Below the pieces are notes generated by a model, which saw only the letters and a program-made list of their open reading frames with translations, searched no databases and was not told the origin of the DNA. Shown here piece by piece: positions 7,886 to 61,787 of a DNA stretch of 64,000 nucleotides; position 1 is the first letter of the stretch; each line of letters begins with the position of its first letter. The stretch lies in assembly GCA_963804645.1 (NCBI GenBank), contig CAWDRG010000015.1, forward strand, positions 160,001 to 224,000, written 5' to 3'. This DNA is from an uncultured Bacillota bacterium. GTDB lineage: Bacteria; Sysuimicrobiota; Sysuimicrobiia; Sysuimicrobiales; Segetimicrobiaceae. A program made the position numbers and the translations under genes.

Positions 7886-7911
7886 GGAATAGGCGGGCGG
7901 CGGCGCACGTT
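7886..7911 (+). promoter_or_regulatory. SigR/SigH-type ECF promoter (GGAAT-N18-GTT) upstream of the cysteine operon
   Basis: GGAAT at 7886-7890, exactly 18 nt, then GTT at 7909-7911. Confidence 0.6.
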
Positions 7912-8083
7912 CGTGCTGGGTGAATATGGGGAACTTCTGTATCTGTACGAAGGCATACGGTCCGGTGACGGGGGGTGTCGCCGGGGCTGAATAGTTGGGC
8001 GCCTTTGTGTCCTTGCAGGATCCGGACGGCCGCGGCGCCCTACACCGCGGCCGCGATCTTTGTGTAGGAGAGGAGACGATCCG

Positions 8084-8362
8084 ATGGCGGAAATTTATCT
8101 CCCGACCCCGCTTCGGCGGCTGACGGAGGGACACGCGAGAATTCCCGCGGAGGGCGGTACCGTCGACGAGGCCCTGTCCGCGGCCGAGCGCCGATATCCA
8201 GGACTCCGCGAGCAGCTGCGCGATGCCTCCGGTGAGGTGCGTACCTTCATTAACATCTTCGTGAACGGCACGGAGATCCGTTCGCTCCAGGGAGGGGCGA
8301 CCCCGCTCGGGGCGGCGGACGAGGTCACGATCGTGCCGGCGATGGCCGGGGGCGTCCGGTAG
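8084..8362 (+). CDS. cysO: MoaD/ThiS-family sulfur carrier (CysO-like) ending GG-VR
   Basis: IYLPTPLRRLT...INIFVNG..IR...VTIVPAMAGG-VR; AGGAG RBS. Confidence 0.85.
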   Translation: MAEIYLPTPLRRLTEGHARIPAEGGTVDEALSAAERRYPGLREQLRDASGEVRTFINIFVNGTEIRSLQGGATPLGAADEVTIVPAMAGGVR

Positions 8363-8366
8363 GAAC

Positions 8367-9227
8367 ATGGACGTCTCCGTTCGAGCGCCTCAGCGGACCG
8401 GCCGCACGACGCCGGTGCTCCGCGTCGTCGACACCTCGCAGTTGCTCCTGCATGAGGAAGTGGACGCCGCGCGGGTGAGCCGGCTGTCTCACGCACTCCG
8501 GCGGGAGGGGGTGCTCCGCAACCCGCCGATCGCGGCCGGGCTCGCCGACGGCCGCGCGATGGTGCTTGACGGTGCCAATCGCGTGACGGCGCTCGCGGCA
8601 CTCGGGGTGCGCCACGCCGTCGTGCAGGTCGTGGACTACGGCGACCCCGGTGTGACCCTGGGGACGTGGCGCCACTACGTCCGCGAGCCCGGCGCCCGGC
8701 CCGGGGCCGCGCTGCGGGACCGCGCGGCGGCGCTGCCCGGCAGTTGGGTGGGTGTACGTGCCGAGCATGGGGACGGGGATGCGCACCTCGAGGCTGGTCG
8801 GGCGGCCGCGGTGATCATCACCCGTAATGCCTCGATCTTGATCGGCGGCGGAGCGCTGTCGGAGATCGCGGCGCGGCTCCGTCAGCTCGTGGCGCTGTAC
8901 CGAGATCGGGCAGAGTTCTACCGCGTGGAGACCGGGGATTTCGCCGCGCTCGAGGCCGAGTACGGTCCGGGGAGCCTCGTGGTATTCCCCCGGTTCTCGA
9001 AGGACACGGTGATGCGCTTGGCGCTGGGCGCGGACTTCCTCCCCGCGGGCATCACCCGGCACGGGATCCAGGGGCGCGTCCTGCGGCTCAATACGCCGCT
9101 CGCGTGGCTGTCGGAGGCGGGCGCGGCGGCGGCGAAGCAGCCCGAGCTCGACGCGATGGTGCAGCGCCGGTATCTGGACCACGGTGTGCGCTACTACTCG
9201 GAGTCCACGTTGCTGTTCGATGAGTAG
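8367..9227 (+). CDS. ParB/Srx-fold protein resembling SbnI/SerK free L-serine kinases
   Basis: N-terminal LLLHEE..RV..L......LRNPPI.....MVLDGANRVTAL..LG...AVVQ and C-terminal LPAGITRH.IQGRVLRLNTPL match SbnI-family motifs as I recall them. Confidence 0.65.
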   Translation: MDVSVRAPQRTGRTTPVLRVVDTSQLLLHEEVDAARVSRLSHALRREGVLRNPPIAAGLADGRAMVLDGANRVTALAALGVRHAVVQVVDYGDPGVTLGTWRHYVREPGARPGAALRDRAAALPGSWVGVRAEHGDGDAHLEAGRAAAVIITRNASILIGGGALSEIAARLRQLVALYRDRAEFYRVETGDFAALEAEYGPGSLVVFPRFSKDTVMRLALGADFLPAGITRHGIQGRVLRLNTPLAWLSEAGAAAAKQPELDAMVQRRYLDHGVRYYSESTLLFDE

Positions 9228-10149
9228 CGGCGGTCCGGATCGCGGGTCGCTGCTCGACCGCATCGGCCACACGCCGCTCGTGCGTCTCAGGCGCGTCACG
9301 CAGGACCTTCCCGACGCGGTCGAAGTCTACCTCAAAGCGGAATGGTTCAACCCCGGCGGCTCGGTGAAGGACCGGCCCGTGCTGCGCATGCTGGACGACG
9401 CCGAGCGAGACGGGCGGCTCGAGCCGGGGAAGACGATCCTGGATTCGACCTCCGGCAACGCCGGGATCGCCTACGCGATGATCGGCGCCGTCAAAGGATA
9501 CCCGGTGGAACTCGTCATGCCGGCCAGCGCAAGCGAAGAGCGCAAGCGCATCATCGCGGCGTACGGCGCGCGCATCACCCTGTCGGATCCGCTCGAGGGG
9601 AGCGATGGAGCGATCGTGCTGGCGCGGGAGATTCATGCCCGGGCCCCCGAAACGTACTTCAAGCCCGACCAATACAACAACCCGTCAAACTGGCGGGCCC
9701 ACTACGACACGACGGGTCCCGAGATCCTGGAGCAAACCGGCGGCCGCGTGACCCACTTCGTGGCGGGGCTCGGGACGACGGGCACGCTCGTCGGGACCGG
9801 ACGCCGCCTGCACGAGGCGGACCCGCGCATCGAGGTCGTGGCGGTCGAGCCGGACCGCGCCCTGCATGGGCTCGAGGGGATGAAGCACCTCGCGAGCTCG
9901 ATCGTGCCCGGCATCTATGATGCGGCCGTGCCCGATCGGACGCTGGCGGTGTCCACCGAGGCCGGCTACGCGATGGCGCGCCGCCTCGCACGCGAGGAAG
10001 GGTGCTTCGTCGGCGAGTCCTCGGGCGCCGCGGTCGTCGGGGCGCTGCTCGTGGCCGGCGCACTCCGGTCGGGCGTCGTCGTCGCGATCGCCCCGGACGG
10101 GGGAGACCGGTATCTGAGTACGCCCCTGTGGCGCGCCGACGCGGGGTGA
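9220..10149 (+). CDS. cysM: PLP-dependent cysteine synthase (CysM type)
   Basis: NPGGSVKDR, TSGNAG, GLGTTGT, PDGGDRYLST. Confidence 0.9.
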   Translation: MSSGGPDRGSLLDRIGHTPLVRLRRVTQDLPDAVEVYLKAEWFNPGGSVKDRPVLRMLDDAERDGRLEPGKTILDSTSGNAGIAYAMIGAVKGYPVELVMPASASEERKRIIAAYGARITLSDPLEGSDGAIVLAREIHARAPETYFKPDQYNNPSNWRAHYDTTGPEILEQTGGRVTHFVAGLGTTGTLVGTGRRLHEADPRIEVVAVEPDRALHGLEGMKHLASSIVPGIYDAAVPDRTLAVSTEAGYAMARRLAREEGCFVGESSGAAVVGALLVAGALRSGVVVAIAPDGGDRYLSTPLWRADAG

Positions 10150-10219
10150 GCTCGCGGTGCCATCGGGCTCCCACGGCGAGGATGATTTCGGTTACAATAT
10201 TGTGAAGGAGAGGTCGCGG

Positions 10220-10738
10220 GTGACGATTCGACTGACTCGTGCCCAACTGGAGACGATGCTGGCGCAGGCGTACACAGAGGCCCCGCGCGAGTGCTGCGGG
10301 TTGCTCCTCGGCGTCGGCGATGTCGTCGCCAGGGTGCTGCCGGCGCAGAACAAGGCGGCGGAGCTTCCGGAGCCGCGCGACCCCCGAGTGTACTACTACG
10401 TCGACGATCGCACCCAGTTGGACGCGGTGCGGTTGGAGCGGGAACACGGGTGGGAGGTGGTCGGCATCTACCACTCGCACCCAGCGACCGCCGCGCGGCC
10501 GAGCGAGACCGACCGAGCGCTCGCGGTGTGGCAGTCGCCGCACTACGTGATTATGTCGCTGGCCGATCCCAGCCGGCCGGATGTGCGGGCGTTCCGCATC
10601 ACCGACCGGGTGGAGGAGCACGGGTCCACCGTCACAGACTCGCAGGGACGGCCGGTTCGGGATGTGGTGCATGAAACGATCGTGGTGACACGCAGGCCGG
10701 CCAAGGACGTCGTGAACGAGGAAGTGGTGGCGAGATGA
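10220..10738 (+). CDS. mec: JAMM/MPN metallopeptidase (Mec-like)
   Basis: PRECCGLL; JAMM motif YHSHP.....PSETD. Confidence 0.9.
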   Translation: MTIRLTRAQLETMLAQAYTEAPRECCGLLLGVGDVVARVLPAQNKAAELPEPRDPRVYYYVDDRTQLDAVRLEREHGWEVVGIYHSHPATAARPSETDRALAVWQSPHYVIMSLADPSRPDVRAFRITDRVEEHGSTVTDSQGRPVRDVVHETIVVTRRPAKDVVNEEVVAR

Positions 10739-11163
10739 AGGTGAGCACCCGGGCAGAGTACGGCATCCGCGCGTTGATCGATTTGGCCAGACACTACGGA
10801 CAGGGTCCTATCCAGAGCCATGACATCGCCCGCCGTCAAGGACTGCCCGAGCCGTACCTGAACCAGCTCATGATCACGCTGCGGCGTGCCGGGCTCGTGC
10901 AGAGCAAGCGCGGACCGAGCGGCGGTCACGTCTTGGCGCGCGCTCCCGAGTGCATCACGATCGGGGAGGCGTTTCTGATTCTCGAAGGCAGCGTCGCTCC
11001 GTGGCTGTGCGTGGAAGAGACCGACGCGCACTGCATCTACGCCGCGGGCTGCGGGCTGCGTCCGGTCTGGCAGGCGGTCAAGGCGGCGACCGAGGATGTG
11101 CTCAACCGCACGACGCTGGCCGACATTCTCCGGCCATCGCTCGTCTCGGTCGGCGACGCGTGA
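10735..11163 (+). CDS. Rrf2-family regulator (IscR/CymR-like, three Cys)
   Basis: STRAEYGIRAL, SKRGPSGG, C-x7-C-x5-C. Confidence 0.9.
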   Translation: MKVSTRAEYGIRALIDLARHYGQGPIQSHDIARRQGLPEPYLNQLMITLRRAGLVQSKRGPSGGHVLARAPECITIGEAFLILEGSVAPWLCVEETDAHCIYAAGCGLRPVWQAVKAATEDVLNRTTLADILRPSLVSVGDA

Positions 11164-11180
11164 GAACCGCGAGCGGATGC

Positions 11181-11206
11181 GGAATCGACGGGGAGGCGCA
11201 GGCGTT
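11181..11206 (+). promoter_or_regulatory. Autoregulatory SigR/SigH-type promoter (GGAAT-N18-GTT)
   Basis: GGAAT at 11181-11185, 18 nt, then GTT at 11204-11206, just upstream of the ECF gene. Confidence 0.65.
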
Positions 11207-11239
11207 CTTCACAGTGGACGGCTCGACGAGGTCTGCGGC

Positions 11240-11869
11240 GTGAGCGACGTCGGCGGACACCAGCCGACCCCGGGCGGCGCGGCGACGCCGGACGAGGCCC
11301 GTGAGGCGCGGGCTCGGTTCGAAGCACTCGTCGGGGAGCACCTGGACGGCCTGTACCGTGTGGCCCTGCGGCTCTCGCGCAACCCGACCGTGGCGGAGGA
11401 TCTGGTGCAAGAGGCGATGCTCCGGGCGTGGCGATCGTTTCATACGTTTCGCGAGGGGACGAACATTCGGGCGTGGCTCTACCGTATTTTGATGAACGCA
11501 CACGTTGATCGGTACCGGAAGGCGGCGAGGACGCCGGAAGTGCTCGAAGAGGAGATCGGCGACGAGTACTTGTACGCGGGCGCCCGCGACGGAGACGCGT
11601 TGAGCCAGGCGGGCAACCCTGAGGTGGAAGTGCTCGACCGCATCATGGACCAGGAAGTCCGGGAGAGCCTGGATGCCCTGCCGCTCCCGTTTCGCGCAGC
11701 CGTCATGCTGGTGGACGTCGAAGGGTTCTCGTACAAGGAGGCTGCGGAGATTCTTGGGGTGCCGATCGGAACCGTGATGTCGCGCCTGTCGCGAGCGAGG
11801 CACGCGTTGAAACGCCGGCTGGCGGCGTTCGCGCGGGACCGGCACTTCGTGCAGGGAGAGCCGGCATGA
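11240..11869 (+). CDS. ECF sigma factor, SigR/SigH-like
   Basis: AEDLVQE, GTNIRAWLYRILMN, DVEGFSYKEAAEILGVPIGTVMSRLSRAR. Confidence 0.92.
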   Translation: MSDVGGHQPTPGGAATPDEAREARARFEALVGEHLDGLYRVALRLSRNPTVAEDLVQEAMLRAWRSFHTFREGTNIRAWLYRILMNAHVDRYRKAARTPEVLEEEIGDEYLYAGARDGDALSQAGNPEVEVLDRIMDQEVRESLDALPLPFRAAVMLVDVEGFSYKEAAEILGVPIGTVMSRLSRARHALKRRLAAFARDRHFVQGEPA

Positions 11870-12090
11870 ACTGCAGCGAGGCCGTGGAAAAGCTCTGGCA
11901 GTACCTCGATCGGGAGCTCGAGGGCGACAAGGTGGTCGAGATCGAACTGCACCTGCAAGAGTGCCGCGGCTGTTTCTCCAAAGCGGAGTTCGAGCGGCAC
12001 CTCCGGTCGTTACTGCGAAGGTCGTGTGGCTGCGATCAGGCACCGCCAGAGCTGCGAGCGCGTCTGACCCGGCTGCTCCGAATGTTTTGA
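11866..12090 (+). CDS. Zinc-binding anti-sigma factor (RsrA/RshA-like)
   Basis: C...YLD.EL...HLQECRGC (HxxxCxxC); overlaps the sigma gene. Confidence 0.9.
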   Translation: MNCSEAVEKLWQYLDRELEGDKVVEIELHLQECRGCFSKAEFERHLRSLLRRSCGCDQAPPELRARLTRLLRMF

Positions 12091-13049
12091 ACACCACGCG
12101 CGCGCCCCGCCGTGCCGCGATCGACGTCGGCACCAACTCCGTCCGTCTGCTCGTGGCCGATCTCCCAGGGTGGACCCCAGGAGCGCCGACGATGCTCTCG
12201 CCCGGCGCGCAGGGTCCGATCCTCCGTCCGGTGCTCCGCCGTCTATCGATTACCCGTCTGGGTGACGGTCTCGATGCCACCGGCGCCCTTCGACCCGGCT
12301 CCGCGGCGCGGACGGCGGTCGCGATCGAAGAATTTGCCGCGGCGGCGTACCGCCTCGGCGCGCCGAACCCGGTCGTGCTGGCCACGTACGCGCTGCGCGC
12401 GGCGAGAAACCCGCAGGAGCTGCTGTCGCGAGTGCAGCGACCCGTGCGGATTCTGAGCGGGGAAGAGGAGGCGCGGCTCGGGTTCTTGGGCGCGGTTGCG
12501 GCGCTGGCTCCGCGGCACGTCGCGCCGGGCGTCCTGGTGGTCGACATCGGGGGCGGCAGCGTCGAGCTGACCTGGGGGACTCTGCGAGGCATCGAGGGAA
12601 CCCACTCGTTCCCCCTCGGATGCGTGTTGTTGACCCATCGGTTTCTCAAGCACGACCCGCCAGAGGCCGCGGAGGTCGAGGCGCTTGAGAGCTACCTCGA
12701 CGAGACGCTCGGCCCGGTGCTGGAGCGGCTGCGCACGATTCCGCACGCGGTGATCGGCGTGGGGGGGACCATCACCACGCTGGCGGCGATCGACCAGCGA
12801 CTGGAGCCGTACGATCCGGATCAAGTCCACGGCTACCGTCTTTTGGCCGATCGGGTCCGCGTGATTCTCGTAGATCTGCTTGGCCGGTCGCTGGTGGCCC
12901 GACAGACGATTCCCGGGCTCCAGCCCGAGCGCGCGGATGTGATCGTCGCCGGCGCGCTCGTGCTGCAGCGCGTGCTTGACGGACTCGGCGGGCGCGCGAT
13001 TCAAGCGAGCGAGGCCGACCTGCTCTGGGCGGCGCTGCTGGGCTACTAG
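12087..13049 (+). CDS. Ppx/GppA exopolyphosphatase family
   Basis: AAIDVGTNSVRL, ILSGEEEARL, VDIGGGSVE, RADVIVAG. Confidence 0.9.
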   Translation: MNTTRAPRRAAIDVGTNSVRLLVADLPGWTPGAPTMLSPGAQGPILRPVLRRLSITRLGDGLDATGALRPGSAARTAVAIEEFAAAAYRLGAPNPVVLATYALRAARNPQELLSRVQRPVRILSGEEEARLGFLGAVAALAPRHVAPGVLVVDIGGGSVELTWGTLRGIEGTHSFPLGCVLLTHRFLKHDPPEAAEVEALESYLDETLGPVLERLRTIPHAVIGVGGTITTLAAIDQRLEPYDPDQVHGYRLLADRVRVILVDLLGRSLVARQTIPGLQPERADVIVAGALVLQRVLDGLGGRAIQASEADLLWAALLGY

Positions 13050-13131: not shown

Positions 13132-15220
13132 CAGCCCTAAAGAATAGGCAATTTCTCGCACCACAGCCCTTTCGGCGAGCCGTTTGTCGCAGGGGTCCTG
13201 TGGGTTTTTGACCGAACGCGGGTCGGCCCCCCATAATTTTTTCTTCGCAGCAGGATTTTGGGGGGAGATAACTGAAAGATAGTACTAAGGCATTTCAGTC
13301 ACCAAAGCCTGGCGCCCAGCGGATGACCCGAGACGGGTGTCGAAGGGAAGGCCGATGCGGATTCCCACCCACCCGACCCTCCTCCGGCGGCAATTGGACG
13401 CCCGCGTGCAGCAGTTGGCGGCGCAGGGGCCGGTGCTGGCGGCCAGTTTAGTGAAGATCGCGCGCCGCTGCGGGCGGCCGGGCTGCCACTGTACGCAGGG
13501 CGCGCTGCACGTGGGCCATTACCTGTCGTACAAAGTAGCGGGCAAGACGCGGATGGTGTACGTGCCGGTCGACCTCGTCGAGGAGGTCCGGGGGTGGGTC
13601 GCGGAGCACCGCCGGCTGCGCCAATTGACGCAGGAGATCACGCAACTCACGCTGGCCCAGATCCGCGGGCACGTGACGGCGCGGAAGCGGCGGGCCGGCC
13701 GGGCCTAAGCGCCCTCGGGCAGACATTCCACCACACGATCCAGCACTTCTGGCCGGCGTTGAACCAGTGGCTGGCCGCGCTGCCGGACACGCGCCATCAG
13801 TCGTTCATCGAGTACGACCCCGAGTTTCTCGCCTGGTGGGGGCTCTTGCTCTTCTGCTGTAAACTGGGCAGTCGGCGCCAGTTGGACTTTGACTTGCGCG
13901 ATCCGGCGACGCAGGTGCTCCGCAATGTGAACCGGCTCGCCGGGACGCAGCACGCGACCTTGCCGGTGCACGACACGTTGGACCACTTCTTGCACCATCT
14001 GGGGAGTGCGCCGCTGGCGGCGCTGCGGACCCAGATGGTGCGCCGCCTGATTCGGATGAAGGTGTTGGATGGCGCGCGCCTGCTCGGCCGCGTCGTCGTC
14101 GCGATCGACGGGACGGGGCATCTGCACTTTCGGCGGCGGCACTGTCCCCAGTGTTGGGTGCGGCAGCATCCCGCCTACGACGCGTATCTGCACATGGTCG
14201 AAGAGGCGAAACTCCTCGGCCCCGGCGGGCTCGGGCTGTCCCTCGGGACGGCCTTTATTGAGAACGCCGATCGTCCGTCGCCGGTGGACCGGGACCCGGA
14301 CGGCGTGGAAGCAGGACTGCGAGCTGGCGGCATTCCGCCGCCTGGTGCCGGCCCTGCGGCAAGCGTATCCCCAGATGGCCTTCTGTGTGACGAGCGATGC
14401 GCTGTATGCGTGCGCGCCGGCGGTACGATTGGTCGAAGCCCAGGGGTGGAGCTATGTGTTTACCTTCAAGGCGGGGAACGCGCCGACGGCCTGGGCCGAG
14501 TTTCAGGCCGTGATGGCGTTGTGCCCGGAGAATGTCCTGCGGCTGACCCTCCCCGACGGGACGCAGCAAGTGTACCGCTGGGCGACAGGGATGTCGTCGG
14601 ACGATGGGACCGGGCGCAGCGCGTATGGGTTCAACGCCCTGCGGTGCGAGGAGACGGTGAAGGCGACGACGACGACCTTCGTGTGGATGACGAACCTCCC
14701 GGTGAGCCGGGACACGGTGGTGGAGATTGCGACGAAAGGAGGGCGACGCCGCTGGACGATTGAGGCCGGGTTCAATGTGCAAAAAAACAGCGAGCTCAAC
14801 CTGGAGCACGCCTACAGCACCGATCCGGAATTGATCAAGGCCTACTACTATCTCCTCCAGATCGCGCATATGATGCTGCAACTGCTGGAGCGCGGGAGTT
14901 TGCTCCGGCGCTTGGCCCAGCGGCACGGCAAAACGCCGGTGGCCCTCTTTGGCAGTCTCAAGAACATCGCCCGCCGGCTCCTCGAGGCGCTCCGCCACCA
15001 CGTCCTTCCCGACGAGCCGAGACCGGCCATCCAAATCCGCTTCGATACATCCTAAGAGCGGTTCGCTGGCGGCTGCTCCGGCTCTCGTACTCGCTGTGCT
15101 CGCTGCTATGTTCCGCTTCTCGAAGTCATCGCTTCGAGCTCCCTCCCTATCACGCTCGTTTGACCCTTCCGCGATGCGGTCCCAGCCCTCCGGCTTGCCA
15201 GGTCCTATTCCTCATCGCTG
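13132..15220 (+). mobile_element. IS with a small DUF6788-like ORF (13355-13708) and a DDE transposase (~13705-15055, frameshift ~14290)
   Basis: Imperfect IRs CAGCCCTAAAGAATAGG / CCTATTCCTCATCGCTG. 9-bp target duplication CGTTACGCC at 13123-13131 and 15221-15229. Motifs AIDGTG, KQDCELAAF, DALYA, RWTIEAGFNVQK; the small ORF has RRCGRPGCHC. Confidence 0.85.
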
Positions 15221-15230
15221 CGTTACGCCA

Positions 15231-16528
15231 GGTAGTGTCAACTCTTTTGTGTAGTTTCGCATGACCCGTATCGGTATGCGTAGCGCTCATTGAGCGCCCG
15301 GATGATGGCAAAGATGATGCGCTCGCAGCTGGCCGTGTTGGTGAAGCAGGTCATCGGGCGCGTGCGGCGGCGGATCTCCCGGAAGACCCGTTCGATCGCG
15401 TTTGTAGTTCTCACTTTCCGCCAATCGGCTTCCGGGACGTCAAGGAACTTCAGCAGCGCATCCCAGTCGCGGAACAGGGTGGCGACGGCGCTGGGGGCGG
15501 TGCGCTCCCAAGCTTGCCGCCAGCGCTGCAGCGCGCGTTCCGCGGCCGGCCGGGATCGGGCTTGGTAGATACGGCGGGCCATGCGCAAACACTCGTCCCG
15601 ATCGCGGACGCGCAGGCGGTTAGAGACATTGCGGAGGACGTGGACCCAGCAGGCCTGGCGGGGGACGTCCGGATAGATGTAGTCGAGGGCGGCATGGAGC
15701 CCGCGGTGCCCGTCGGTGGTGATGAGGCGCAACTGGCTGCCGGCGAGGCCGCGCGCGGCGAGGGTGAGGAGAAAGGCGTCCCAGGTGCTGTGGCCCTCTC
15801 GGCGCACGAGCCGGAAGTCCAGGAGCTGGCGGCGGCCATCGGCCCTGAGGCCATAGGCCACCAGCGCCACGCGGCGGCGGGTGCCGTCGGGGGTTTTGGT
15901 GCGGAGGCTGACGGCGTCGAGGAAGAGATAGACCCACTCATCGGACAGAGGCCGACGGTGAAAGGCCGCCACCGCCTGGTCCAGGGTGCGGGTGATGGCG
16001 GAGACCGTCGTGGCGCTGAGGCGGTCCTCGAGCAGCTCGGCGAGCAGGGGGCCCACTTGGCGGGTACTGACGCCGCCGAGGAAGACGCTGCGGACCAGCG
16101 TATTGACGCGGTCGGTGCGGCGCTGGTAGCGGGGGAGGACCGAGGGCGTAAAGCCGTGGACCCGGGCGCGCGGGACAGTGAGGGGGAGAGTGCCCCAGGT
16201 GGTGGTGAGGCGCCGGACGTAGGAGCCGTTGCGATAGCCGCGGCGGTAGGAACTGCGGTGGTACGAGGCGGCTTTCAGATAGTGGGTCAACTCATCTTCC
16301 ATGCGGTGTTCGAGGAGACATTTCACCGCGCGGAGGCTCTCGCGGGAGATGTCCCCCCAGAGGGTGGCTTCGTCCTTGACCTCCTTCCACAGATCCGATA
16401 CGGTGAGATCGGTCAGTGCGGCAACACTGGCCACGGGCGTATCCTCCTTTCTATGGGGTAGTGGGTGGAGGGTACGCCCCCTCCCTTTCGGCGCCCTCTC
16501 GAAAGTCCACAGAGAAGCGTACACTACC
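15231..16528 (-). mobile_element. IS256-family element (transposase 16434-15238)
   Basis: IRs begin GGTAGTGT. 8-bp TSD TTACGCCA at 15223-15230 and 16529-16536. Motifs YLFLDA, TDGHRGL, QACWVH, RTTNAIER. Confidence 0.93.
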
Positions 16529-16543
16529 TTACGCCACCCGCGT

Positions 16544-16571
16544 TTGACAGGTCCGGTCGCGGTGTTATAAT
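16544..16571 (+). promoter_or_regulatory. Consensus sigma70 promoter of the tRNA
   Basis: TTGACA-N16-TATAAT with a TGn extension, 34 bp before the tRNA. Confidence 0.85.
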
Positions 16572-16604
16572 GACTAGTGCACTTCAAATTACATACGGTT
16601 GCGG

Positions 16605-16681
<77 letters not shown>

Positions 16682-16694
16682 AGTTCACAGAGGC

Positions 16695-16730
16695 GACCCG
16701 CTCGGTAGACTCCGAGCGGGTCCTTTTTGT
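16695..16730 (+). terminator. Intrinsic terminator after the tRNA
   Basis: GACCCGCTCGG-loop-CCGAGCGGGTC followed by a T tract. Confidence 0.85.
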
Positions 16731-16819
16731 GTTTCGAGGGACGCGATTTTGACAAACTTCCACCGGCCGTGTTAAGGTACGTAGTAGCTATTGGCTACTT
16801 ACTCGTAGAGGTGTTGGCC

Positions 16820-17089
16820 GTGGGAATCGTGACGGCGAAGCAGCTCAAGAATAGTACTGGTGAGGTCTTGCGCCGCGTGCGATCCGGCGAGATCGTAACG
16901 GTTACGATCCGTGGCACAAGCGTGGCGCAGTTCATCCCCCTGCGCGGTAGGGCCCAGGTACAGCATTTACGCCAGGCGCGTGCATCAAAACAAACTGTCG
17001 TGCGGTCCGTCGCTGGACGGTACCGGGGTGTGGGGACCCTGCGGGAATTTCTCAAGGACAAAGCTCAGGAGATTAGACAGGAGCGATAG
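16820..17089 (+). CDS. Phd/YefM antitoxin
   Basis: VTAKQLKNSTGEVLRRVRSGEIVTVTIRG; upstream TTGACA at 16749 and operator AGTAGC-N5-GCTACT at 16783-16799. Confidence 0.85.
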   Translation: MGIVTAKQLKNSTGEVLRRVRSGEIVTVTIRGTSVAQFIPLRGRAQVQHLRQARASKQTVVRSVAGRYRGVGTLREFLKDKAQEIRQER

Positions 17090-17092
17090 GCG

Positions 17093-17509
17093 GTGCCCCC
17101 ACTATTCGTCCTGGATTCGAGTGCAGTGCTGGCGTTCCTTTATGGGGAGCGTGGCCGGAATCGGGTTGAGCAGCTGCTCCTCGAGGCCGCCGAGGGCCGC
17201 GCAACGATCCGATTACATCGAATCCATCTTGGGGAAGTGTACTACGTCTTCTACCGCAAGGGTGGGGAGCGGACTGCCGAGGCCATGCTCGATGACGTCG
17301 GGCAACTACCAGTGGAAGTCGAAGATCGCGTTTCGCCCGCCCTAATGCGCGAGGCGGGCAGGATCAAGGCTTCGTACCCTATGTCTTATGCCGATGCCTT
17401 CGCTGCGGGACTGGCACGGGTTCGGAAGGGGATCCTGGTTTCGGCCGACCGCCTCGAGTTTGGACCTGTTGAATCGGCCGCCGAGCTCTCGGTCTTGTGG
17501 GTGCGGTGA
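17093..17509 (+). CDS. vapC: VapC PIN-domain toxin
   Basis: FVLDSSAVLA, GEVYY, SYADAF, SAD. Confidence 0.9.
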   Translation: MPPLFVLDSSAVLAFLYGERGRNRVEQLLLEAAEGRATIRLHRIHLGEVYYVFYRKGGERTAEAMLDDVGQLPVEVEDRVSPALMREAGRIKASYPMSYADAFAAGLARVRKGILVSADRLEFGPVESAAELSVLWVR

Positions 17510-17624
17510 GGGAAGACACGGATCGCCACGCGGAACACAGATCAGCATAGAACGATCGCATCGCATGCTGCTGGAAGCGCGGCAAGTGGTAGGCAAAATT
17601 GTTCTGATTCCCTAAAGGAGAAGT

Positions 17625-17721
17625 AGGCCACTGCGTGACGCAAGGAGACGGCCCGATCGTCAAGGAACCAGTTCATCGCTATACACCATCACCGATTGGG
17701 GGTCCGCACACAGGTCCGCAC
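17625..17721 (+). repeat. Cassette-end module, copy A (truncated by an IS21 end)
   Basis: Homologous to 19114-19265 and 60776-60949; ends GGGGGTCCGCACACAGGTCCGCAC. Confidence 0.75.
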
Positions 17722-17830
17722 TGTCAACGCCGGGTTAGAAGTGACCCCACTCCTGCCGCTTTTGAATTGACCCACCCCACGCGGCCACCGCATCGCGGGC
17801 CGCCGGTTTAGAATTGACCCACCCCCCTTC
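17722..17830 (+). mobile_element. Isolated IS21-like terminal sequence with no istA/istB
   Basis: Starts TGTCAACGCCGG and has repeated GAA(G/T)TGACCC motifs, typical of IS21 ends. Confidence 0.55.
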
Positions 17831-18076
17831 GGCGCTCACGCCTTGCCCGGCGCAGCGGCTGGCTCGGCCTGGCATCGACTCCAGTCGTTCCTCGAAGCAC
17901 AGAGCTGCCGTAACAGCAAGACTTATGCACACAAAGTCCCTGGCGGGTTTATCTTCGTATGCGGGGACAACCCCCCGGGTCTATGCCTTTGGGCGATGAG
18001 GATCATCCGCGGCTCTTGAGGATATCGGAGTCGTCAGAACGTAGCTTGCGGCCTACGGCGCTGCCGTAGTACACTA

Positions 18077-18385
18077 ATGTGTGTGGCTGGTCCGGATGAC
18101 TTTGACGGCTTCGAGTGGGATGAGGAGAAGAGCGCGCGCTGCTATGAGGAACGTGGTTTCGACTTCGACTACGCAGCGAAGCTTTTCGACGGCGATTTTA
18201 TCGAGTGGGAGGACCGGCGCCGCGACTGGGGTGAGCCGCGAGTCGTCAGCGTCGGAGAGGTCGAGGGACGAACCCTCACCGTTATCTGGACACCGCGCGA
18301 GACCCTGAGGCGAATTATCTCGGCGCGACCGGCATCGCGGTCGGAGAGGGAGAGACTGCATGGCAACCGTGAGACGCAGCAATAA
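18077..18385 (+). CDS. brnT: BrnT-family toxin
   Basis: FEWDEEKS....RGFDF..A..F; DWGEPR; RRIISAR.ASRSER; upstream palindrome CTACGGC-N3-GCCGTAG. Confidence 0.88.
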   Translation: MCVAGPDDFDGFEWDEEKSARCYEERGFDFDYAAKLFDGDFIEWEDRRRDWGEPRVVSVGEVEGRTLTVIWTPRETLRRIISARPASRSERERLHGNRETQQ

Positions 18386-18710
18386 GGAAATTCGTGAAGG
18401 GCGCGGTCGCGCGCATGGGGAGAAGATCGCATCTTTCACGGAAGCCGACGTTGACCGCTTCGCGCGGGACGACGAGAGCGACACGAGTGGACTCGGTGCG
18501 CCACGGTATGTCCCACCGCGCACTGATGTCCGTGCACTGCGCGAGCGACTTGGCCTCTCACAAGAAGAGTTTGCGCGGCGCTATATGCTTTCGCCGCGCA
18601 CCATTCAGGATTGGGAACAGCGGCGGCGCGAGCCGTCGGACGCTGCACGCGTGTTACTGTTCGCCATTTCGCGCAACCACGAGGCCGTCGAGAAAGCCCT
18701 ACACGGATAA
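18360..18710 (+). CDS. XRE/HTH antitoxin (HigA/MqsA-like)
   Basis: DVRALRERLGLSQEEFARRY...TIQDWEQ.RREP; overlaps brnT. Confidence 0.88.
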   Translation: MATVRRSNKEIREGRGRAHGEKIASFTEADVDRFARDDESDTSGLGAPRYVPPRTDVRALRERLGLSQEEFARRYMLSPRTIQDWEQRRREPSDAARVLLFAISRNHEAVEKALHG

Positions 18711-18775
18711 GGTCCTCGCTGCGAGCATCACGCGCTTCGGGTGCCAGCATTCACGTTGGATGCCGTGCTCGATCT

Positions 18776-19098
18776 TTTGATAGTGCCGGTAACCTCCTCG
18801 GCATCGAAGTCCCGAATCCCTGGTTCAGGGCTCCTGGCCAGCGCTCGATGTTGACCACTACATTCCCGGGATTCTTGCCAGAGTGTTCGGTACTCGACGT
18901 TGGATGAGCGAACTTGGGCGCAAGGGCGGCATTGTCCGCAGTGCGGCAAAGACCGCGGCGGCACGTGCCAATGGCCTCAAGGGCGGACGGCCCCAACGTA
19001 GTACCCGTGCCGTAGCGGGGTCTGCCCTTGAAGTCCAAAGGAGAAGCAAGCGTCGGACACGCGTCGCCGCACGACGGCTGAGGTCCCGGGCTCGGTGA
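18776..19098 (+). pseudogene. TA debris: a DUF2283-like fragment and the 3' part of a DUF2442-like antitoxin
   Basis: FDSAGNLLGIEV, then ALDVDHYIPGILARVFGTRRWMSELGRKGG..RS.AK.AAARANG.KGGRP. Confidence 0.55.
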
Positions 19099-19113
19099 GA
19101 CGCACTGCTGCGG

Positions 19114-19265
19114 TAACTGCCTGCGACCGGGTCGGCAGCCGAGTGTTACGGGCACGAGACAGCCCGATCTTCCAGAACCAATTCAGCGCGCAGTTCACTA
19201 TCGCCGGTCGGGGGTCCGCACACAGGTCCCGCACAAGGTAAGGATCCTCGGAAAGGCCTATAATA
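19114..19265 (+). repeat. Cassette-end module, copy B (split by ISL3, resumes at 20586-20615)
   Basis: Collinear with 60776-60949 once the ISL3 is removed. Confidence 0.85.
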
Positions 19266-20585
19266 GATCCGGCATTTTCGGGATTCCCAGGAAATGCGGC
19301 CATGATCTTCAGGAAGAAGTAGCCATCGTCTCGGTAGCCGTATCCCATGCGCTTGAGGACCTTGATCTTGTTGTTGATGCCCTCGAGGAGGCTGGTGTGT
19401 AACGGATAGCGACAGTGCGCGATGATCCCGGGGAGCCGCATCTTGAGATGGCGGGCAAACGTCTTGAGTGGTTGAATGCGACTGCGGATGGCACGGTGGT
19501 ACCAGTCCGTGAAGAAGCGGGTGGCGGCGCCAGGATAGGTATAGTCCCACATCTGCTTGAGATCATCCTTCAGCACGTAGACGGCCGCAAGCCGCCGGTT
19601 GGCTGCCAAGAGGTCCTGGAGTCGTACGCGATCCTCCGGCTTGACGTTCTCACGATTGCGCAAGAGGAGCCACCGCGCGCCTTTGATCACCTTGCGCGCT
19701 GCTTTGTCGCGCGCACGCGATTGGCTTCGTCCACGCGCACCCGGTCAATGACTTCGCGCCGTACTTGGCGACGACGTGGAAGAGGTCATACACAAGGACC
19801 GCGTGCGGACAATGGGCGCGCACTTCTTCTTCGTAGGCCGTGTTCATATCCATCACCACCGCCTGTAGACGCTTGCAGCCCTCGCCACCTAACAGCGCGA
19901 AGAAGGGACGGACGGCGTCGCGGCTCCGGCCTTCGCCGACCCAGAGCACGCGTTTGCGCTGGGGCTCGACCACCACCGTGGCGTAGCGGTGGCCCTTTCG
20001 CAGGGCGAATTCATCCATCGCAATCGTCGTCACGTTGGAGAAGTCGACCGGGAGCAACTCCTCTGCCAACGCGGCCACGTCCAGGTTTTTCACGGTGTCC
20101 CAGTCGAGGCCGTAGAACTCGGCCACGTGCTTCACCGGCAGGATGCGGCAGAGCCGGACCACGCTCTCCGCCAGGCGCGTGGTCACCCGGTCCCAGGCCG
20201 ACAGCCAGGACAGGGCCTCCAGTTTGGGGCCGCACGTGGGACAGGCAACGCGGTAGCGCGGCACCCATACGTGGGTCTCGGCGTCGAGCAGCGGCAGATC
20301 CCGGATGCAGCGGACCACCATCTCATGCGCCTTGGCCGTCTCTTGGCCGCACCCGGAGCACCGGAAGGTCCGCTTCTCGCGGGCCAGCGTGATCTCCACC
20401 CGCGGTTTGCCGGCGCCCGTCGTTGGTTCGATGCGCTCCACCAGCTTCACCCGATAGCATTCCCACCCGACCAGCACATTGGTAGACTGATCTCGAGGCA
20501 AGGTGCTCCCCCTTCCCTGAAGCGCCGTGTTCGCAGCACGTGCTCAAGGATAGGGGTGTGGTACCTTGCCTTCAACTTACACGGA
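19266..20585 (-). mobile_element. ISL3-family element with a frameshifted transposase (start 20501); ends approximate
   Basis: Zn-finger CSGC/CPTC, AMDEFALRKGHRY, VMDM, DLFHVV, LEGINNKIKVLKRMGYGYRD; inserted in an AT-rich TAA(A)TA site. Confidence 0.88.
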
Positions 20586-20615
20586 TAAATAAGGGCGTTC
20601 CGGGCAGGGGAGGTT

Positions 20616-20663
20616 GGGCTCATAACCCGAAGGTCGGAGGTTCAAATCCTCCCCCCGCTACCA
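20616..20663 (+). repeat. tRNA-Met 3' 48-bp direct repeat (att-like)
   Basis: Identical to 16634-16681; followed by a hairpin at 20673-20701. Confidence 0.97.
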
Positions 20664-20785
20664 GTACAGAGGGGGCTCGCTCGAAGCATCAGAGCGAGCC
20701 CTTATCTTCTTTAAGATTATGTGGTCTCTCAAGCCGGTAACTTCCAAGCCTTCTTCGGCGAAGTAAGGGTAGCCATCTGGTCTGG

Positions 20786-22674
20786 TCAGGTTGACAGCAC
20801 CTTCTTCAAGTAGTGCTTCTTGTGTCCAATGGGGTAGCCATCGAGGACACCGATTTCTGCGTAGCCGAGCTTTTCATAAAAGGTGATGTGCTAGTCTTCC
20901 TGTAAAAGTTGACGGTCTGGGCTACCCTAATGGTGTCGCCAAACACCAGCTCCTTGTAAGGGGAGCAGAAGAGGAGCCCAGACCAATGCCCAGGATAGCA
21001 CCCAGCACCAAGATTCGGGAAGAGATCAAGCGCCTGCTTCAGGACGGCGTGGCGGAGGGCGAGGATGTGACGGGCCTGCTGTTGCGCTTGGGGGCCCAAC
21101 GGCTCGCGCAGGAACTGCTCGAGGAAGAGGCCACCGATTTTCTCGGGCGGGACCGCTATGTCCGGCACCAGCGCGCCGAGCCCCATCGCGGCTACCGGAA
21201 CGGCTACGAACCCAGCCGGGTCCGGACCGCGGAAGGCGACGTCCCGCTGCAGGTCCCGCAGGTGCGGCAGACGCCGATGCCCTACCAGTCCCGGCTGCTC
21301 AGTTTCCTCCGCGGCCATACCGATGTGCTGAAGCGGCTGGTGGCCGAGATGTACGCGCGCGGGCTGTCGACCCGGGATATTGAGGACAGTTTCCGCGACG
21401 TCACCGGCAAACGCTTGATCAGCGCCAGCGGGGTCAGCGCCGTGACCGAACGGCTGTGGGAAGAGTATCAGACCTTCACGCGGCGGGACCTCTCCGGGTT
21501 TGCCGTCGAGTACCTGTTTGTGGACGCGATCTACGAATCGCTCCGCCTCCAGGCGGGCGGGGCCGAGGCCTTGCTGTGTGCGTGGGGCATTCTCGCCGAC
21601 GGGCGGAAAGTGTTGCTGCACTTGACGTTGGGGAACAAGGAAAGCTACCGTGGCTGGCGCGGCATGTTGCGGGACATGGTCCGCCGCGGCCTGCGCCCAC
21701 CGGTCAGCATCACGAGCGATGGGGCGCCGGGCTTGCTGCGCGCCATCAAGGAGATGTGGCCGAAGAGTCTGCGCTTGCGGTGCTGGGTGCACCGAATGCG
21801 GAATGTGTTGGACAAAGTCCCCGACGCGGCGCGGGCGGAGGTGAAGGCGCACGTCGCCGCGATCCGCGATGCCCCGACCTATCAGGAAGGCACCCAGACG
21901 GCCCAGGCGGTGCTGGCGCGATTCGCGCGTCTCTACCCGACGGCGATGGCCTCTCTCAGTGACGATCTGGAGGCCAGCCTGGCGCATCTGCGCCTGCCGG
22001 TCGGCCATCGGAAGTATGTCCGGACGACGAACCTGATCGAGCGGAGTTTTCTCGAAGAACGCCGGCGCACCAAGATCATCCCGCGCTTCTTCGATGAACG
22101 AAGCTGTCTCACGCTGGTGTACGCGACCTTGGTGCGTGCCAGCCAGCGGTGGCAGCGCATTCACTTCACCGATGCTGAACGTCTCCAGTTGCACCGACTC
22201 CGTCAAGAACTGGGCCTCAGACTCCATCGTGAGCTTGTTCCATCGACTCGCACTATCGTGAAGCGCTCTAAGAGGAGGAGAGCTGCGTAGCATGCACCAC
22301 GCCCAGACCGTCAACTTTTACAGGAAGACTGGGACTTGACCTTCATAAAAACCAGGTGCCTGAAAACTATGTGTCTCGAGAGTGGCGATGTGGCAACCTC
22401 TGCGGATCGCCTCCTGTTCAACGGCGCGCATCAACTTTGATCCAAGTCCCTCTCCACGGAAGTCCTCGTGCACCCACAAGAATCGAATGTCGAGGCACCC
22501 ACCCCATGTATACGCACGGATTCCGGCGATGAGCTGCCTCATGGAATCGCGCAAGAAGATCGCGAGGTCCCCGTAGTCGTAGATCTTTGTCTCCTCGACG
22601 TTGAATGTGTCGACGTGGTCCCTGAGAGACTCGATGTCCCTGGGGTCGGGGTTGACCTCAATGTCGAATTGGAA
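20786..22674 (-). pseudogene. GNAT acetyltransferase, IS256-interrupted and 5'-truncated paralog of 62656-63087
   Basis: Near-identical DNA on both sides of the IS; the start codon is lost at 22674. Confidence 0.9.
20882..22341 (+). mobile_element. IS256-family element (transposase 20986-22290)
   Basis: 41-bp IRs (...AGTCTTCCTGTAAAAGTTGACGGTCTGGGC); 9-bp TSD TTCATAAAA at 20873-20881 and 22342-22350; SDGAPGL, CWVH, RTTNLIER. Confidence 0.96.
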
Positions 22675-22694
22675 CCGCTACCAAGTTCACAGAG
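22675..22694 (+). repeat. Minimal tRNA-end repeat CCGCTACCA-AGTTCACAGAG
   Basis: Matches the tRNA end plus its downstream flank; followed by a hairpin at ~22692-22729. Confidence 0.8.
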
Positions 22695-22827
22695 AGGACT
22701 CTCCTGGGTAACGCCGGGCGAGTCCTCTCGCGTTTCGATCCGCTAATCGACCCATGCTAGATTAGGCGTGCATCTTGCATATCCGCAAAAATATCTTGTA
22801 TGTTGAAAACGCGGATGATGATCGGAG

Positions 22828-23049
22828 ATGAAAACCACGGTTACTGTGAGGGGTCAGACGGTAATCCCTGCGGCGCTACGTAGGGCGCACCGTATCGTCC
22901 CTCGGATGAAGCTGGAATGGGTGGATGATGGACAAACCATCCGAGTGATCCCTATTCACGCGGATCCGATTGCCGCCGCTTGAGGCGCATCGAAAGGGCT
23001 CCGGTCGGCGCTGCTGACCGACCGCAATCACGAGCGTCGGCGTGGCTGA
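22828..23049 (+). pseudogene. AbrB/MazE-type antitoxin with a premature stop at 22981 and a frameshift
   Basis: MKTTVTVRGQTVIPAALRR...LEWVDDGQTIRVIP..DPIAAA*; the tail LRSALLTDRNHERRRG* is in another frame. Confidence 0.75.
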
Positions 23050-23476
23050 GCGGTATGTCCTCGATACGTCGGCCATCCTGGCCTTTCTCGGAGATGAGAA
23101 CGGCGCCGCCAGGGTTGAACGTCTGTTGCGTGGCGGTCGAGCTGGCCAATGTGACGTGCTTGCTTGCTCGATTACTCTTATGGAGCTGTTCTACGCGGCG
23201 ATGCGGGAGAAGGGGGAGGATGAATCCTACAGACTGGTTGCGCTTGTAAAGGCGTGGCCGCTCGAATGGGTGTACCCAGACAATAGGGTGCTTCTCCAGG
23301 CTGGCCGGCTGAGGGCAACATATCGCCTTTCTGTCGCCGACGCGCTGATTGCTGCTGTGGCAAAGTTGCATGACGCGACGCTGGTCCACAAAGATCCCAA
23401 ACTGGATGAGTTACAGGGGCTGAACAAGCTGATGACGCTACCTTTCAAAGGGACGCCGGGAGCAAGAGGTAACTAA
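23042..23476 (+). CDS. vapC: VapC PIN-domain toxin
   Basis: YVLDTSAILA, MELFY, LSVADALIAA, LVHKDP. Confidence 0.9.
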   Translation: MAERYVLDTSAILAFLGDENGAARVERLLRGGRAGQCDVLACSITLMELFYAAMREKGEDESYRLVALVKAWPLEWVYPDNRVLLQAGRLRATYRLSVADALIAAVAKLHDATLVHKDPKLDELQGLNKLMTLPFKGTPGARGN

Positions 23477-61086: not shown

Positions 61087-61338
61087 TTATCGCCGGTAAG
61101 CTTCGCGGCGATGTCGCACGTACTGAACTTCAACGATATTTGTGTTTACGATTCGATAAATGACTCGGTACTTGCCCATTCTCAGTTTCCAATACCCTTC
61201 CCACTCTCCGTGCAGCGGATCGCCCGCTCTGGGATCATCGATCAGTTGGTCTAGTGTTATCTCGAGCCTTCTCCGGAGTTCGGCGGGAATCTTCTGAATA
61301 TCGCGTAAGGCCCGCCCTGTGAATCGAAGTGCCGCCAT
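61087..61338 (-). CDS. relE: RelE/ParE toxin
   Basis: FTGRALRDI, G.PL.G, KLRMGKYRVIY, VRHRREAYR. Confidence 0.9.
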   Translation of the reverse strand: MAALRFTGRALRDIQKIPAELRRRLEITLDQLIDDPRAGDPLHGEWEGYWKLRMGKYRVIYRIVNTNIVEVQYVRHRREAYRR

Positions 61339-61625
61339 TAGCGATGCTTACGAGCGTCCCGCAGCGGAGGGTGACCGAACACATCCTCGTACGTGTATAC
61401 TCGATCCGCCTTGGCATCGGCCTGAGCCTCTCTCAGAGTCCTCAGCGCCCCCGGATCTGCCATTTCTTCGAGTGTCGCCATCATGCTGTTGTACTCATCA
61501 GTGCCGAGGAGGATGGCGACCGGGGTTCCTTCACGGGTAATGACCACTTGATCGCCTAGTTCAGCTGCGCGGATTAGCTTAGTAAGTTTCTGGTGAGCTT
61601 CCTTGACCCCGACTGTCCTGGCCAT
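61338..61625 (-). CDS. Phd/YefM antitoxin
   Basis: VGVKEAHQKLTKLI...VVITREGTPVAILL..DEYNSMMATLE. Confidence 0.9.
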   Translation of the reverse strand: MARTVGVKEAHQKLTKLIRAAELGDQVVITREGTPVAILLGTDEYNSMMATLEEMADPGALRTLREAQADAKADRVYTYEDVFGHPPLRDARKHR

Positions 61626-61787
61626 CGGGCACCTCACATCGTGTGGTATATACCCGAGTATATATATTAGTATAGATATTTCGCTGACCCTTGTCAAAGG
61701 GTAAACCGTCGGTCATCGCGGGTGCAATTTCGCGTTTTGAGGAAACCTGCTCGAGCGGCACCAGGACGATTGGCAGAGGCAAAAGCG

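Follow-up and report, generated by a model that had tools for sequence, protein, structure and literature searches.

The 64,000-nucleotide stretch of contig CAWDRG010000015.1 analysed here (the window), from an uncultured bacterium placed by GTDB in the Sysuimicrobiota, carries a five-gene operon that encodes a CysO-like sulfur carrier, a 286-amino-acid (aa) homologue of free-serine kinases, a CysM-type cysteine synthase, a JAMM metallopeptidase, and an Rrf2-family regulator. We propose that this locus is a stress-inducible module for cysteine synthesis, one that would activate serine by phosphorylation instead of acetylation. Homology, conserved residues, synteny, protein fusions, and motif positions, all observed computationally, are the evidence laid out below.

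In the proposed pathway, the 286-aa enzyme would phosphorylate free L-serine to O-phospho-L-serine (OPS), as its homology and genomic context suggest. By analogy with Mycobacterium tuberculosis, CysM would then exchange the phosphate of OPS for the C-terminal thiocarboxylate of CysO, forming a CysO-cysteine adduct from which the JAMM peptidase would free cysteine and regenerate CysO. Beforehand, the same peptidase would remove whatever comes after the GG in the CysO precursor (VR in the window), and sulfur would be loaded onto CysO by an E1-type activating enzyme and a sulfur donor encoded elsewhere. To judge from motifs, transcription would start at a SigH/SigR-type promoter; the sigma/anti-sigma pair encoded downstream would sense thiol oxidation, and the Rrf2 protein and a conserved leader would add further control. 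Taken as a whole, the chain from serine to OPS, through CysM and the CysO thiocarboxylate to JAMM-dependent release and maturation, with expression under a redox-responsive sigma factor, is in our judgment probable.

A serine kinase homologue between CysO and CysM

A sequence-only reading of this DNA had described the five genes as mostly overlapping or abutting and had proposed that they couple a free-serine kinase to the CysO/CysM/Mec route. Five tightly packed plus-strand open reading frames (ORFs) indeed occupy positions 8084-11163 (Table 1), and their measured spacing bears out the packing. The carrier gene ends 4 nucleotides (nt) before the kinase gene, which overlaps cysM by 44 nt if CysM starts at the GTG at 9184, or by 8 nt if it starts at the ATG at 9220, the likely start. 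A gap of 7 nt separates cysM from the JAMM gene, which in turn overlaps the Rrf2 gene by 4 nt. A TTG at 8060 is the less likely start for cysO because GGAGAGGAG precedes the ATG at 8084 by 7 nt.

Pfam has no family that matches the 286-aa protein. A phmmer search against the PDB finds SbnI at an E-value of 3e-13, in two stretches spanning both domains, and a profile of 23 family sequences matches SbnI at 7.7e-26 (positions 16-254 and 16-283) and SerK at 1.5e-7 (positions 22-245). An AlphaFold2 model, built with the same 23-sequence alignment, has a pLDDT of 84.7 and a pTM of 0.82. The nine best Foldseek matches of this model in the PDB are three SbnI structures, five SerK structures, and the Pyrococcus homologue 1VK1 (PF0380-like), with E-values of 5.5e-17 to 3.3e-14, TM-scores (target) of 0.70–0.80, and 242–276 aligned columns; below these come only the N-terminal domains of ParB, Noc, and sulfiredoxin, at E-values of at least 1.2e-3 and over about 80 columns. 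The relationship to SbnI and SerK suspected from the letters alone thus extends over the full length of both two-domain proteins.

The presumed active site is also retained. E30 of the window protein, in its LHE motif, aligns with E20 of the Staphylococcus pseudintermedius SbnI chain 6NR6 and with SerK E30, the residue changed in the deposited E30A/E30Q mutants (PDB 5X0E/G/J/K), and D68 matches the DGxHR Asp, which in SbnI is D58. We take E20 and D58 of SbnI to have a catalytic role. In the C-terminal domain, T230-R231-H232 aligns with the vTRF of SbnI and the tTRH of SerK, a TR(H/F) motif. Six residues (E30, D68, R72, W101, T230, and R231) do not vary across the 23-sequence alignment, and H232 varies very little; the LHE, RNPP, LDGANR, W-H, GITRH, and R-L-N motifs are invariant or nearly invariant. 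The same holds for the columns of the LHE, NP, LDGxxR, and PAGxTR..IxGRxLxL motifs that the sequence-only reading had picked out, all of which are found in the translation.

The family is large and mostly unnamed. A database search in which 8000 candidates were scored yielded 686 relatives, nearly all without a functional name; among 120 relatives listed, five carry the JGI label 'L-serine kinase (ATP) / ParB family...'. An exhaustive profile search of cluster representatives returned 1729 matches at E<=1e-3, 1080 at E<=1e-10, and 356 at E<=1e-30. Sequence and modeled fold place the 286-aa protein, over its full length, in the SerK/SbnI superfamily, where it belongs to a distinct subfamily, and it is likely a serine kinase.

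Genomic contexts of the kinase family

One contig scan found relatives of the kinase in 278 stretches, and 80 loci were kept and examined, typed by tblastn with the window proteins and with recurrent neighbor proteins. This neighborhood survey, which the sequence-only reading had named as a check, shows that both the kinase-CysM pairing and the four-gene order recur. The kinase gene is directly followed by CysM in 30 of the 80 loci, and those CysMs are 63–87% identical to that of the window. All four genes, CysO-kinase-CysM-JAMM, occur in this order in 26 of the 80; because the order is kept so widely, the arrangement is not a chance one. In 28 of the 30 loci that pair kinase and CysM, Rrf2 comes next after JAMM, mostly with SigH-RsrA behind it. 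In ten of the 80 loci, a pyridoxal phosphate (PLP) enzyme resembling cystathionine beta-synthase (CBS) lies just upstream of the kinase gene, four of them preceded by CysO.

The window CysM scores 346.8 bits against the TIGR01136 cysKM model (cutoff 344.15), and its leading matches in the PDB are E. coli/Salmonella CysM, at 7.4e-74, and Geobacillus and Thermus enzymes. Its K234 aligns with R210 of E. coli CysM, which would correspond to R220 of M. tuberculosis CysM, a residue presumed to confer OPS preference there; a literature search turned up no paper on that role. All 30 kinase-linked CysMs carry K or R at this position, as part of a conserved HG(L/I)EG(L/W)(K/R)H motif, and the nine CBS-like paralogues lack both the motif and its basic residue. 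From its context, the window CysM would be expected to prefer OPS and the CysO thiocarboxylate. The JAMM protein matches Prok-JAB at 83.2 bits (cutoff 25) and a desampylase model at 3.9e-23, which is under that model's cutoff; its metal-site motif E...HSHx7SxxD is intact in the translation (ECCG...HSHPATAARPSETD).

Outside the CysM loci, the same kinase family is associated with other enzymes of OPS metabolism. In 11 of the 80 loci, of Comamonadaceae type (L039, L040, L042, L043, L047, L048, L050, L051, L055, L063, and L076), a gene for TrpB2 (NF009057, 741 bits against a cutoff of 366) lies about 148 nt downstream of the kinase homologue, and SerB is encoded on the opposite strand in eight of these 11. 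According to PMC11917138, which cites Busch et al. 2014, TrpB2 enzymes use OPS rather than serine. Kinase, TrpB2, and SerB may therefore form a unit for serine-to-OPS-to-tryptophan salvage.

Fusion proteins were drawn from the longer proteins among 150 listed profile-search matches, with P0100 taken from the earlier search for relatives. Among the matches listed, there are two ThiS-kinase fusions (P0100 and P0127), one JAMM-kinase fusion (P0139), and at least four full-length fusions of the kinase to the catalytic domain of phosphoglycerate dehydrogenase (PGDH; P0193, P0223, P0230, and P0231), besides at least five fragments of this last type. The PGDH-kinase fusions are about 580–600 aa each, lack the PGDH regulatory domains, and have TIGR01327 as their best match (163–382 bits). 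In archaea of the Desulfurococcales, serK genes adjoin PGDH genes, as described in the SerK paper (PMC5120207). The strongest argument that the product of the kinase is OPS is this recurrence of the family with makers and users of OPS: CysM, TrpB2, SerB, and PGDH.

The PGDH-kinase fusions could also be read as signs of an enzyme that serves serine catabolism, or that runs in reverse from OPS to serine, with cysM beside it only incidentally. SerK acts in the assimilation of serine to 3-phosphoglycerate, as reported in PMC5120207, and a SerBK family (DUF1015) has been proposed (PMC13759103); both would suit such a role. However, the kinase gene lies between cysO and cysM in overlapping or abutting frames, a placement conserved in 26–30 loci, and neither serA nor serC is in the window, and we regard a catabolic role as highly improbable. 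The 286-aa protein might instead act chiefly as a ParB-like regulator or nucleotide-binding switch with little or no catalysis in this setting, as might be supposed from SbnI, which is annotated as a bifunctional transcriptional regulator/OPS synthase. This we consider quite unlikely, as the operon already has a dedicated Rrf2 protein and a sigma/anti-sigma pair, conservation extends to the catalytic Glu/Asp and to the TRH motif of the C-terminal domain, and both the PGDH fusions and the pairing with TrpB2/SerB fit an enzyme.

In a FastTree phylogeny of 87 kinase sequences, the CysM-linked kinases fall in one clade, which also holds the kinases of the kinase-JAMM loci, that of L069 (CBS context), and the ThiS fusions; the JAMM fusion P0139 branches at its base. 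The TrpB2-linked and Chloroflexota kinases are found in other clades. Candidatus Fervidifonticultor (phylum Sysuimicrobiota) is among the hosts in which the CysM-linked clade occurs, along with metagenome-assembled genomes labeled Armatimonadota or Bacillota and unclassified bacteria.

Several genes recur upstream of the operon, namely those for a lipoate-protein ligase, an FTR1 iron permease, a DtxR-type iron repressor, an ATP-binding cassette (ABC) importer, and an M23 peptidase. An iron/lipoate theme beside the cysteine module is seen in the flanks of L003, L005, L009, L010, L012, L013, L021, L022, L030, L032, and L034, and a lipoate-protein ligase gene lies upstream in the loci with kinase-JAMM-Rrf2, as in L019. 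The ABC transporter found upstream in some loci was considered as a sulfate/thiosulfate importer, a role we rejected: no NCBIfam model scored above its cutoff, and the best matches were of aminoethylphosphonate and polyamine types. In Chloroflexota, a 122-aa ORF with no match in Pfam or NCBIfam directly follows the kinase homologue in L067 (5231-5596) and in 11 other loci, where the gene before the kinase is usually that of a pseudouridine synthase.

Sulfur transfer and control of expression

Several results weigh against the proposed chain. The 286-aa protein scores far under the NCBIfam equivalog cutoffs for SbnI (1.2e-17, 64.1 bits against 350) and SerK (2.7e-8, 33.3 bits against 380); it is therefore neither an SbnI nor a SerK orthologue but a member of a separate subfamily, for which we infer the substrate. 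The window CysM just misses the cutoff of the TIGR01138 cysM equivalog (373.5 against 394.2), and M. tuberculosis CysM (1.2e-60) is a more distant match to it than E. coli CysM (7.4e-74), which acts on O-acetylserine. Among the 80 loci, five of Armatimonadota type contain kinase-JAMM-Rrf2 without an adjacent CysO or CysM; 13 of Chloroflexota type have a pseudouridine synthase upstream and/or the 122-aa ORF downstream, genes unrelated to sulfur or serine; and in 30 of the 80 no PLP enzyme was recognized in the fetched DNA. The loci that fit none of the types named above held nothing recognizable or were too short. In a scan that took in 23 of the 30 kinase-CysM loci, the 118 flanking ORFs, each of 230–699 aa and selected by a filter on third-codon-position GC (GC3; 118 of 146 ORFs, 23 of 26 loci), included neither an E1 nor a rhodanese. 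Finally, the SigR-type promoter motif occurs in the window as often as expected by chance (6 against 5.58).

The affinity of the window CysM to the E. coli/Salmonella enzyme would suit a variant of the pathway in which the kinase makes OPS but CysM takes sulfide or thiosulfate directly, leaving CysO and JAMM to serve another sulfur transfer or to act as an optional donor. Four kinase-CysM-JAMM loci without an adjacent CysO (L025, L027, L032, and L037) and the failure to find an E1 nearby agree with such a variant. However, CysO immediately precedes the kinase gene in 26 of the 30 kinase-CysM loci, JAMM comes after CysM in all 30 (in L027 as a fragment at the contig end), among solved structures the carrier is closest to M. 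tuberculosis CysO, and CysO precursors extended past the GG need the JAMM of the same operon. We consider direct use of sulfide or thiosulfate unlikely, and return to the proposed transfer from CysO.

The carrier aligns with M. tuberculosis CysO (3DWG chain C, 4.3e-14) through the terminal GG of the latter. In the window this GG is formed by residues 89-90, is invariant in 21 sequences, and is followed by VR. Among 32 CysO rows, 26 have 1–29 extra residues after the GG, two stop at the GG (L009 and L010), and in two the alignment has no visible GG (L035 and L069); in the other two, the CysO frame reads through into a CBS-like PLP enzyme (L011:1002-2648 and L029:6211-7950). Because residues or entire enzymes follow the GG, the carrier appears to be a precursor, sometimes a polyprotein, that would need JAMM before it could be charged, and the fusions suggest polyprotein-like precursors cut after the GG. 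A carrier with residues past its GG, trimmed by a JAMM protein encoded alongside, is familiar from HcyS/HcyD of Wolinella and QbsE/QbsD of Pseudomonas.

In the 64-kb window we found no ThiF/MoeZ-type E1 or sulfur-loading rhodanese for CysO, and no cysE, serA, or serC; an E1 was likewise not found among the 24 recurrent neighbor clusters. The sole other sulfur-related gene noticed in the window encodes a pyridine-nucleotide-disulfide oxidoreductase similar to CoA-disulfide/persulfide reductases, with a C-terminal rhodanese domain (51340-53034), 40 kb from the operon. The sequence-only reading had claimed a self-contained route from Ser through OPS and CysO-Cys to Cys; with no E1 found in the window or among the 118 flanking ORFs, self-containment is not supported. 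The coupling of a free-serine kinase to CysO/CysM/Mec, the other half of that claim, has in its favor the homology, fold, catalytic residues, synteny, and links to OPS enzymes.

The failure to find an E1 in the window or in 23 related loci would fit a reading in which the 286-aa protein phosphorylates something other than serine, either another hydroxy-amino acid or the C-terminal carboxylate of CysO, in the latter case replacing the E1. The sulfiredoxin branch of the ParB/Srx fold phosphorylates an acidic group, fusions of the kinase to ThiS and to JAMM exist, and the kinase-JAMM pair is kept without CysM in five loci. The fusion of CysO to the kinase may, however, mirror gene order and not partnership, because CysO is also fused to the CBS-like enzyme (L011 and L029). 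Moreover, the kinase family occurs with TrpB2/SerB and fused to PGDH where CysO is absent, and its entire two-domain architecture and active-site motifs match those of serine kinases, so that a target other than serine is very unlikely. That one enzyme both makes OPS and activates the CysO carboxylate by phosphoryl transfer, in place of a MoeZ/ThiF-type E1, strikes us as very unlikely indeed, although the ThiS and JAMM fusions, the kinase-JAMM pairs lacking CysM, and the 118 flanking ORFs devoid of an E1 would all agree with it; if it did, the operon would be truly self-contained and would represent a new, E1-independent way of loading a ubiquitin-like sulfur carrier.

Expression of the operon under a thiol-responsive sigma factor, as proposed, draws on two copies of the motif GGAAT-N18-GTT (Table 1), the SigR/SigH consensus. 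As its count across the window is at chance, this motif carries weight only through its conserved position. Ten of 28 loci have it 75–214 nt before CysO, the background density being 0.094 per kb; L001-L007 and the window, all within these ten, have it at 195–214 nt. The spacer between Rrf2 and sigma genes contains the motif in 22 of 31 loci, a count that leaves out the site in the window itself. The sigma factor has TIGR02947 SigH_actino as its best match (4.2e-58; 196.2 bits, under the cutoff of 251.55), starting from residue 66, and its true start is probably near 11230-11290. The anti-sigma factor exceeds the cutoff of TIGR03988 antisig_RsrA (81.7 bits against 62.5).

Between promoter and cysO, the leader holds an invariant 13-nt box, CTGYATCTGTACG, at 7937-7949, and GC-rich hairpins at about 7962-7984 and about 8027-8053, the second followed by a T-rich tail. 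Its boxes precede CysO both in the window and in 12 closely related loci (L001-L010, L016, and L018). A comparison with Rfam gave no match at E<=10, to a riboswitch or any known RNA, and the hairpin was not flagged by a terminator scan, whose sole terminator-like site (13187-13203) lies after ppx. Compensatory change is seen in only 2 of 21 predicted pairs, and covariation this sparse does not discriminate between a regulatory RNA and a protein operator; the leader could be an attenuator, a riboswitch, or an operator for Rrf2.

The Rrf2 protein scores above the cutoff of TIGR00738 (123.9 against 73.3) and below that of the CymR equivalog (104.5 against 195), so we assign it to the Rrf2 superfamily without calling it CymR. 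Three of its cysteines lie close together (C-x7-C-x5-C), at the place where Rrf2 regulators that bind a cluster have their ligands. The protein may sense Fe-S or redox state instead of behaving as CymR does.

Elsewhere in the window, a group II intron lies at 31035-32801, recognized from a match to Rfam RF02003 (31035-31179, 86 bits) and from an ORF for a reverse transcriptase/maturase (31497-32801). Two regions, 13337-23473 and 61090-62183, are rich in mobile elements and toxin-antitoxin genes. These include Mutator-family transposases (15241-16641 and 20986-22287), an ISL3 transposase split in two ORFs (18980-20501), PIN-domain genes at 17093, 23042, and 61722, a BrnT-like toxin gene followed by a helix-turn-helix gene (18077-18707), and a ParE/Phd pair (61090-61697). 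There are also tRNA matches at two places, 16605-16678 and 20603-20660.

Table 1. Features of the operon and its immediate surroundings (positions in the window)
Feature	Position	Strand	Basis or remark
SigR/SigH-type promoter motif GGAAT-N18-GTT	7886..7911	+	About 175 nt upstream of cysO
Conserved 5' leader, ~150 nt, between promoter and cysO	7932..8083	+	Alignments of related loci
CysO-like ThiS/MoaD-type sulfur-carrier protein, 92 aa, ending ...AMAGG-VR	8084..8362	+	Pfam ThiS 1.8e-12
SerK/SbnI-like predicted free L-serine kinase ("SerKL" in this analysis), 286 aa	8367..9227	+	Profile and fold matches
CysM-type cysteine synthase (PLP, fold type II), 321 aa	9184..10149	+	PALP 3.5e-70
JAMM/MPN+ metallopeptidase (Mec-like), 193 aa	10157..10738	+	Prok-JAB 1.6e-23
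Rrf2-family regulator, 142 aa	10735..11163	+	Rrf2 1.1e-37
SigH/SigR-like extracytoplasmic function (ECF) sigma factor	11096..11869 (mechanical ORF)	+	Sigma70_r2 and r4_2
Second GGAAT-N18-GTT motif	11181..11206	+	18 nt past the Rrf2 stop, ahead of the sigma gene
RsrA-type zinc anti-sigma factor	11866..12090	+	zf-HC2 1.2e-9
Ppx/GppA-family phosphatase	11961..13049	+	Ppx-GppA 1.7e-47; syntenic in closest loci

Relation to known OPS and cysteine pathways

The closest known system is the mec-cysO-cysM operon of M. tuberculosis (EC 2.5.1.113), in which CysM uses OPS and CysO-thiocarboxylate, Mec releases cysteine, the operon is SigH-dependent, and MoeZ is encoded remotely, as described in PMC8280819 and PMC9547175; these reviews call the CysM/CysO route actinomycete-specific. 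Both operons combine a ThiS-type carrier with a GG end, a CysM-type PLP enzyme, and a JAMM protein, with probable control of the SigH/SigR type, and in M. tuberculosis too the E1 (MoeZ) is encoded elsewhere. In contrast to the mycobacterial operon, the one described here has a serine kinase homologue between cysO and cysM, begins with cysO, and has JAMM as the last of these genes; its CysO has residues past the GG, and its CysM is nearer to that of E. coli. The hosts also differ, being uncultured Sysuimicrobiota, Armatimonadota-labeled, and unclassified lineages, not actinomycetes.

Two kinase systems offer precedents for the activation of serine. Staphylococcus SbnI, an ATP-dependent enzyme that supplies OPS to SbnA, shares the two-domain fold and the motifs and likewise has an OPS-consuming PLP enzyme of fold type II encoded alongside it. 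Identity to SbnI is only about 20% (64 bits against the cutoff of 350), the product here would feed cysteine and not a siderophore, and nothing in the 286-aa protein points to heme or DNA binding. Thermococcus kodakarensis SerK, which is ADP-dependent and feeds an OPS-using CysK, shares the fold and the catalytic Glu30, and its route likewise runs from Ser through OPS to Cys (PMC5120207). SerK differs in being archaeal, in that the sulfur donor is sulfide and not a carrier protein, and in having no operon with cysK. Clear-cut homologues of SerK were not found in bacteria, according to the SerK paper (PMC5120207).

Three further systems share single elements with the operon. HcyS/HcyD and QbsE/QbsD make homocysteine or a thioquinolobactin precursor, respectively, and have no serine kinase. 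TrpB2 resembles the proposed CysM in being an OPS-using PLP enzyme beside the same kinase family, in the Comamonadaceae-type loci; it is not next to the window operon. The SerBK family (DUF1015), proposed by GapMind 2026 (PMC13759103), is unrelated to the SerK/SbnI-like kinase.

We found no description of a serine kinase combined with CysO/CysM/Mec in the literature searched, partly by titles and the beginnings of abstracts, and papers beyond this search may exist. Both parts, the CysO/CysM/Mec pathway and kinases of the SerK/SbnI kind, are known; what is new to the literature searched is that the two are joined in a single conserved operon and that a large bacterial subfamily of SerK/SbnI-like proteins without a Pfam model exists. 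If the proposed pathway is correct, bacteria outside the actinomycetes make cysteine from serine via OPS and a protein thiocarboxylate, with the kinase encoded inside the operon, and the range of the CysO/CysM/Mec pathway would widen accordingly. This would be a third context for serine phosphorylation, after the Staphylococcus siderophore pathway and archaeal cysteine synthesis, of use in filling gaps in amino-acid pathways of uncultured phyla and in engineering cysteine production without CysE. More broadly, the contexts with CysM, with TrpB2 and SerB, and in PGDH fusions suggest a general role for free-serine kinases as an overlooked bacterial source of OPS.

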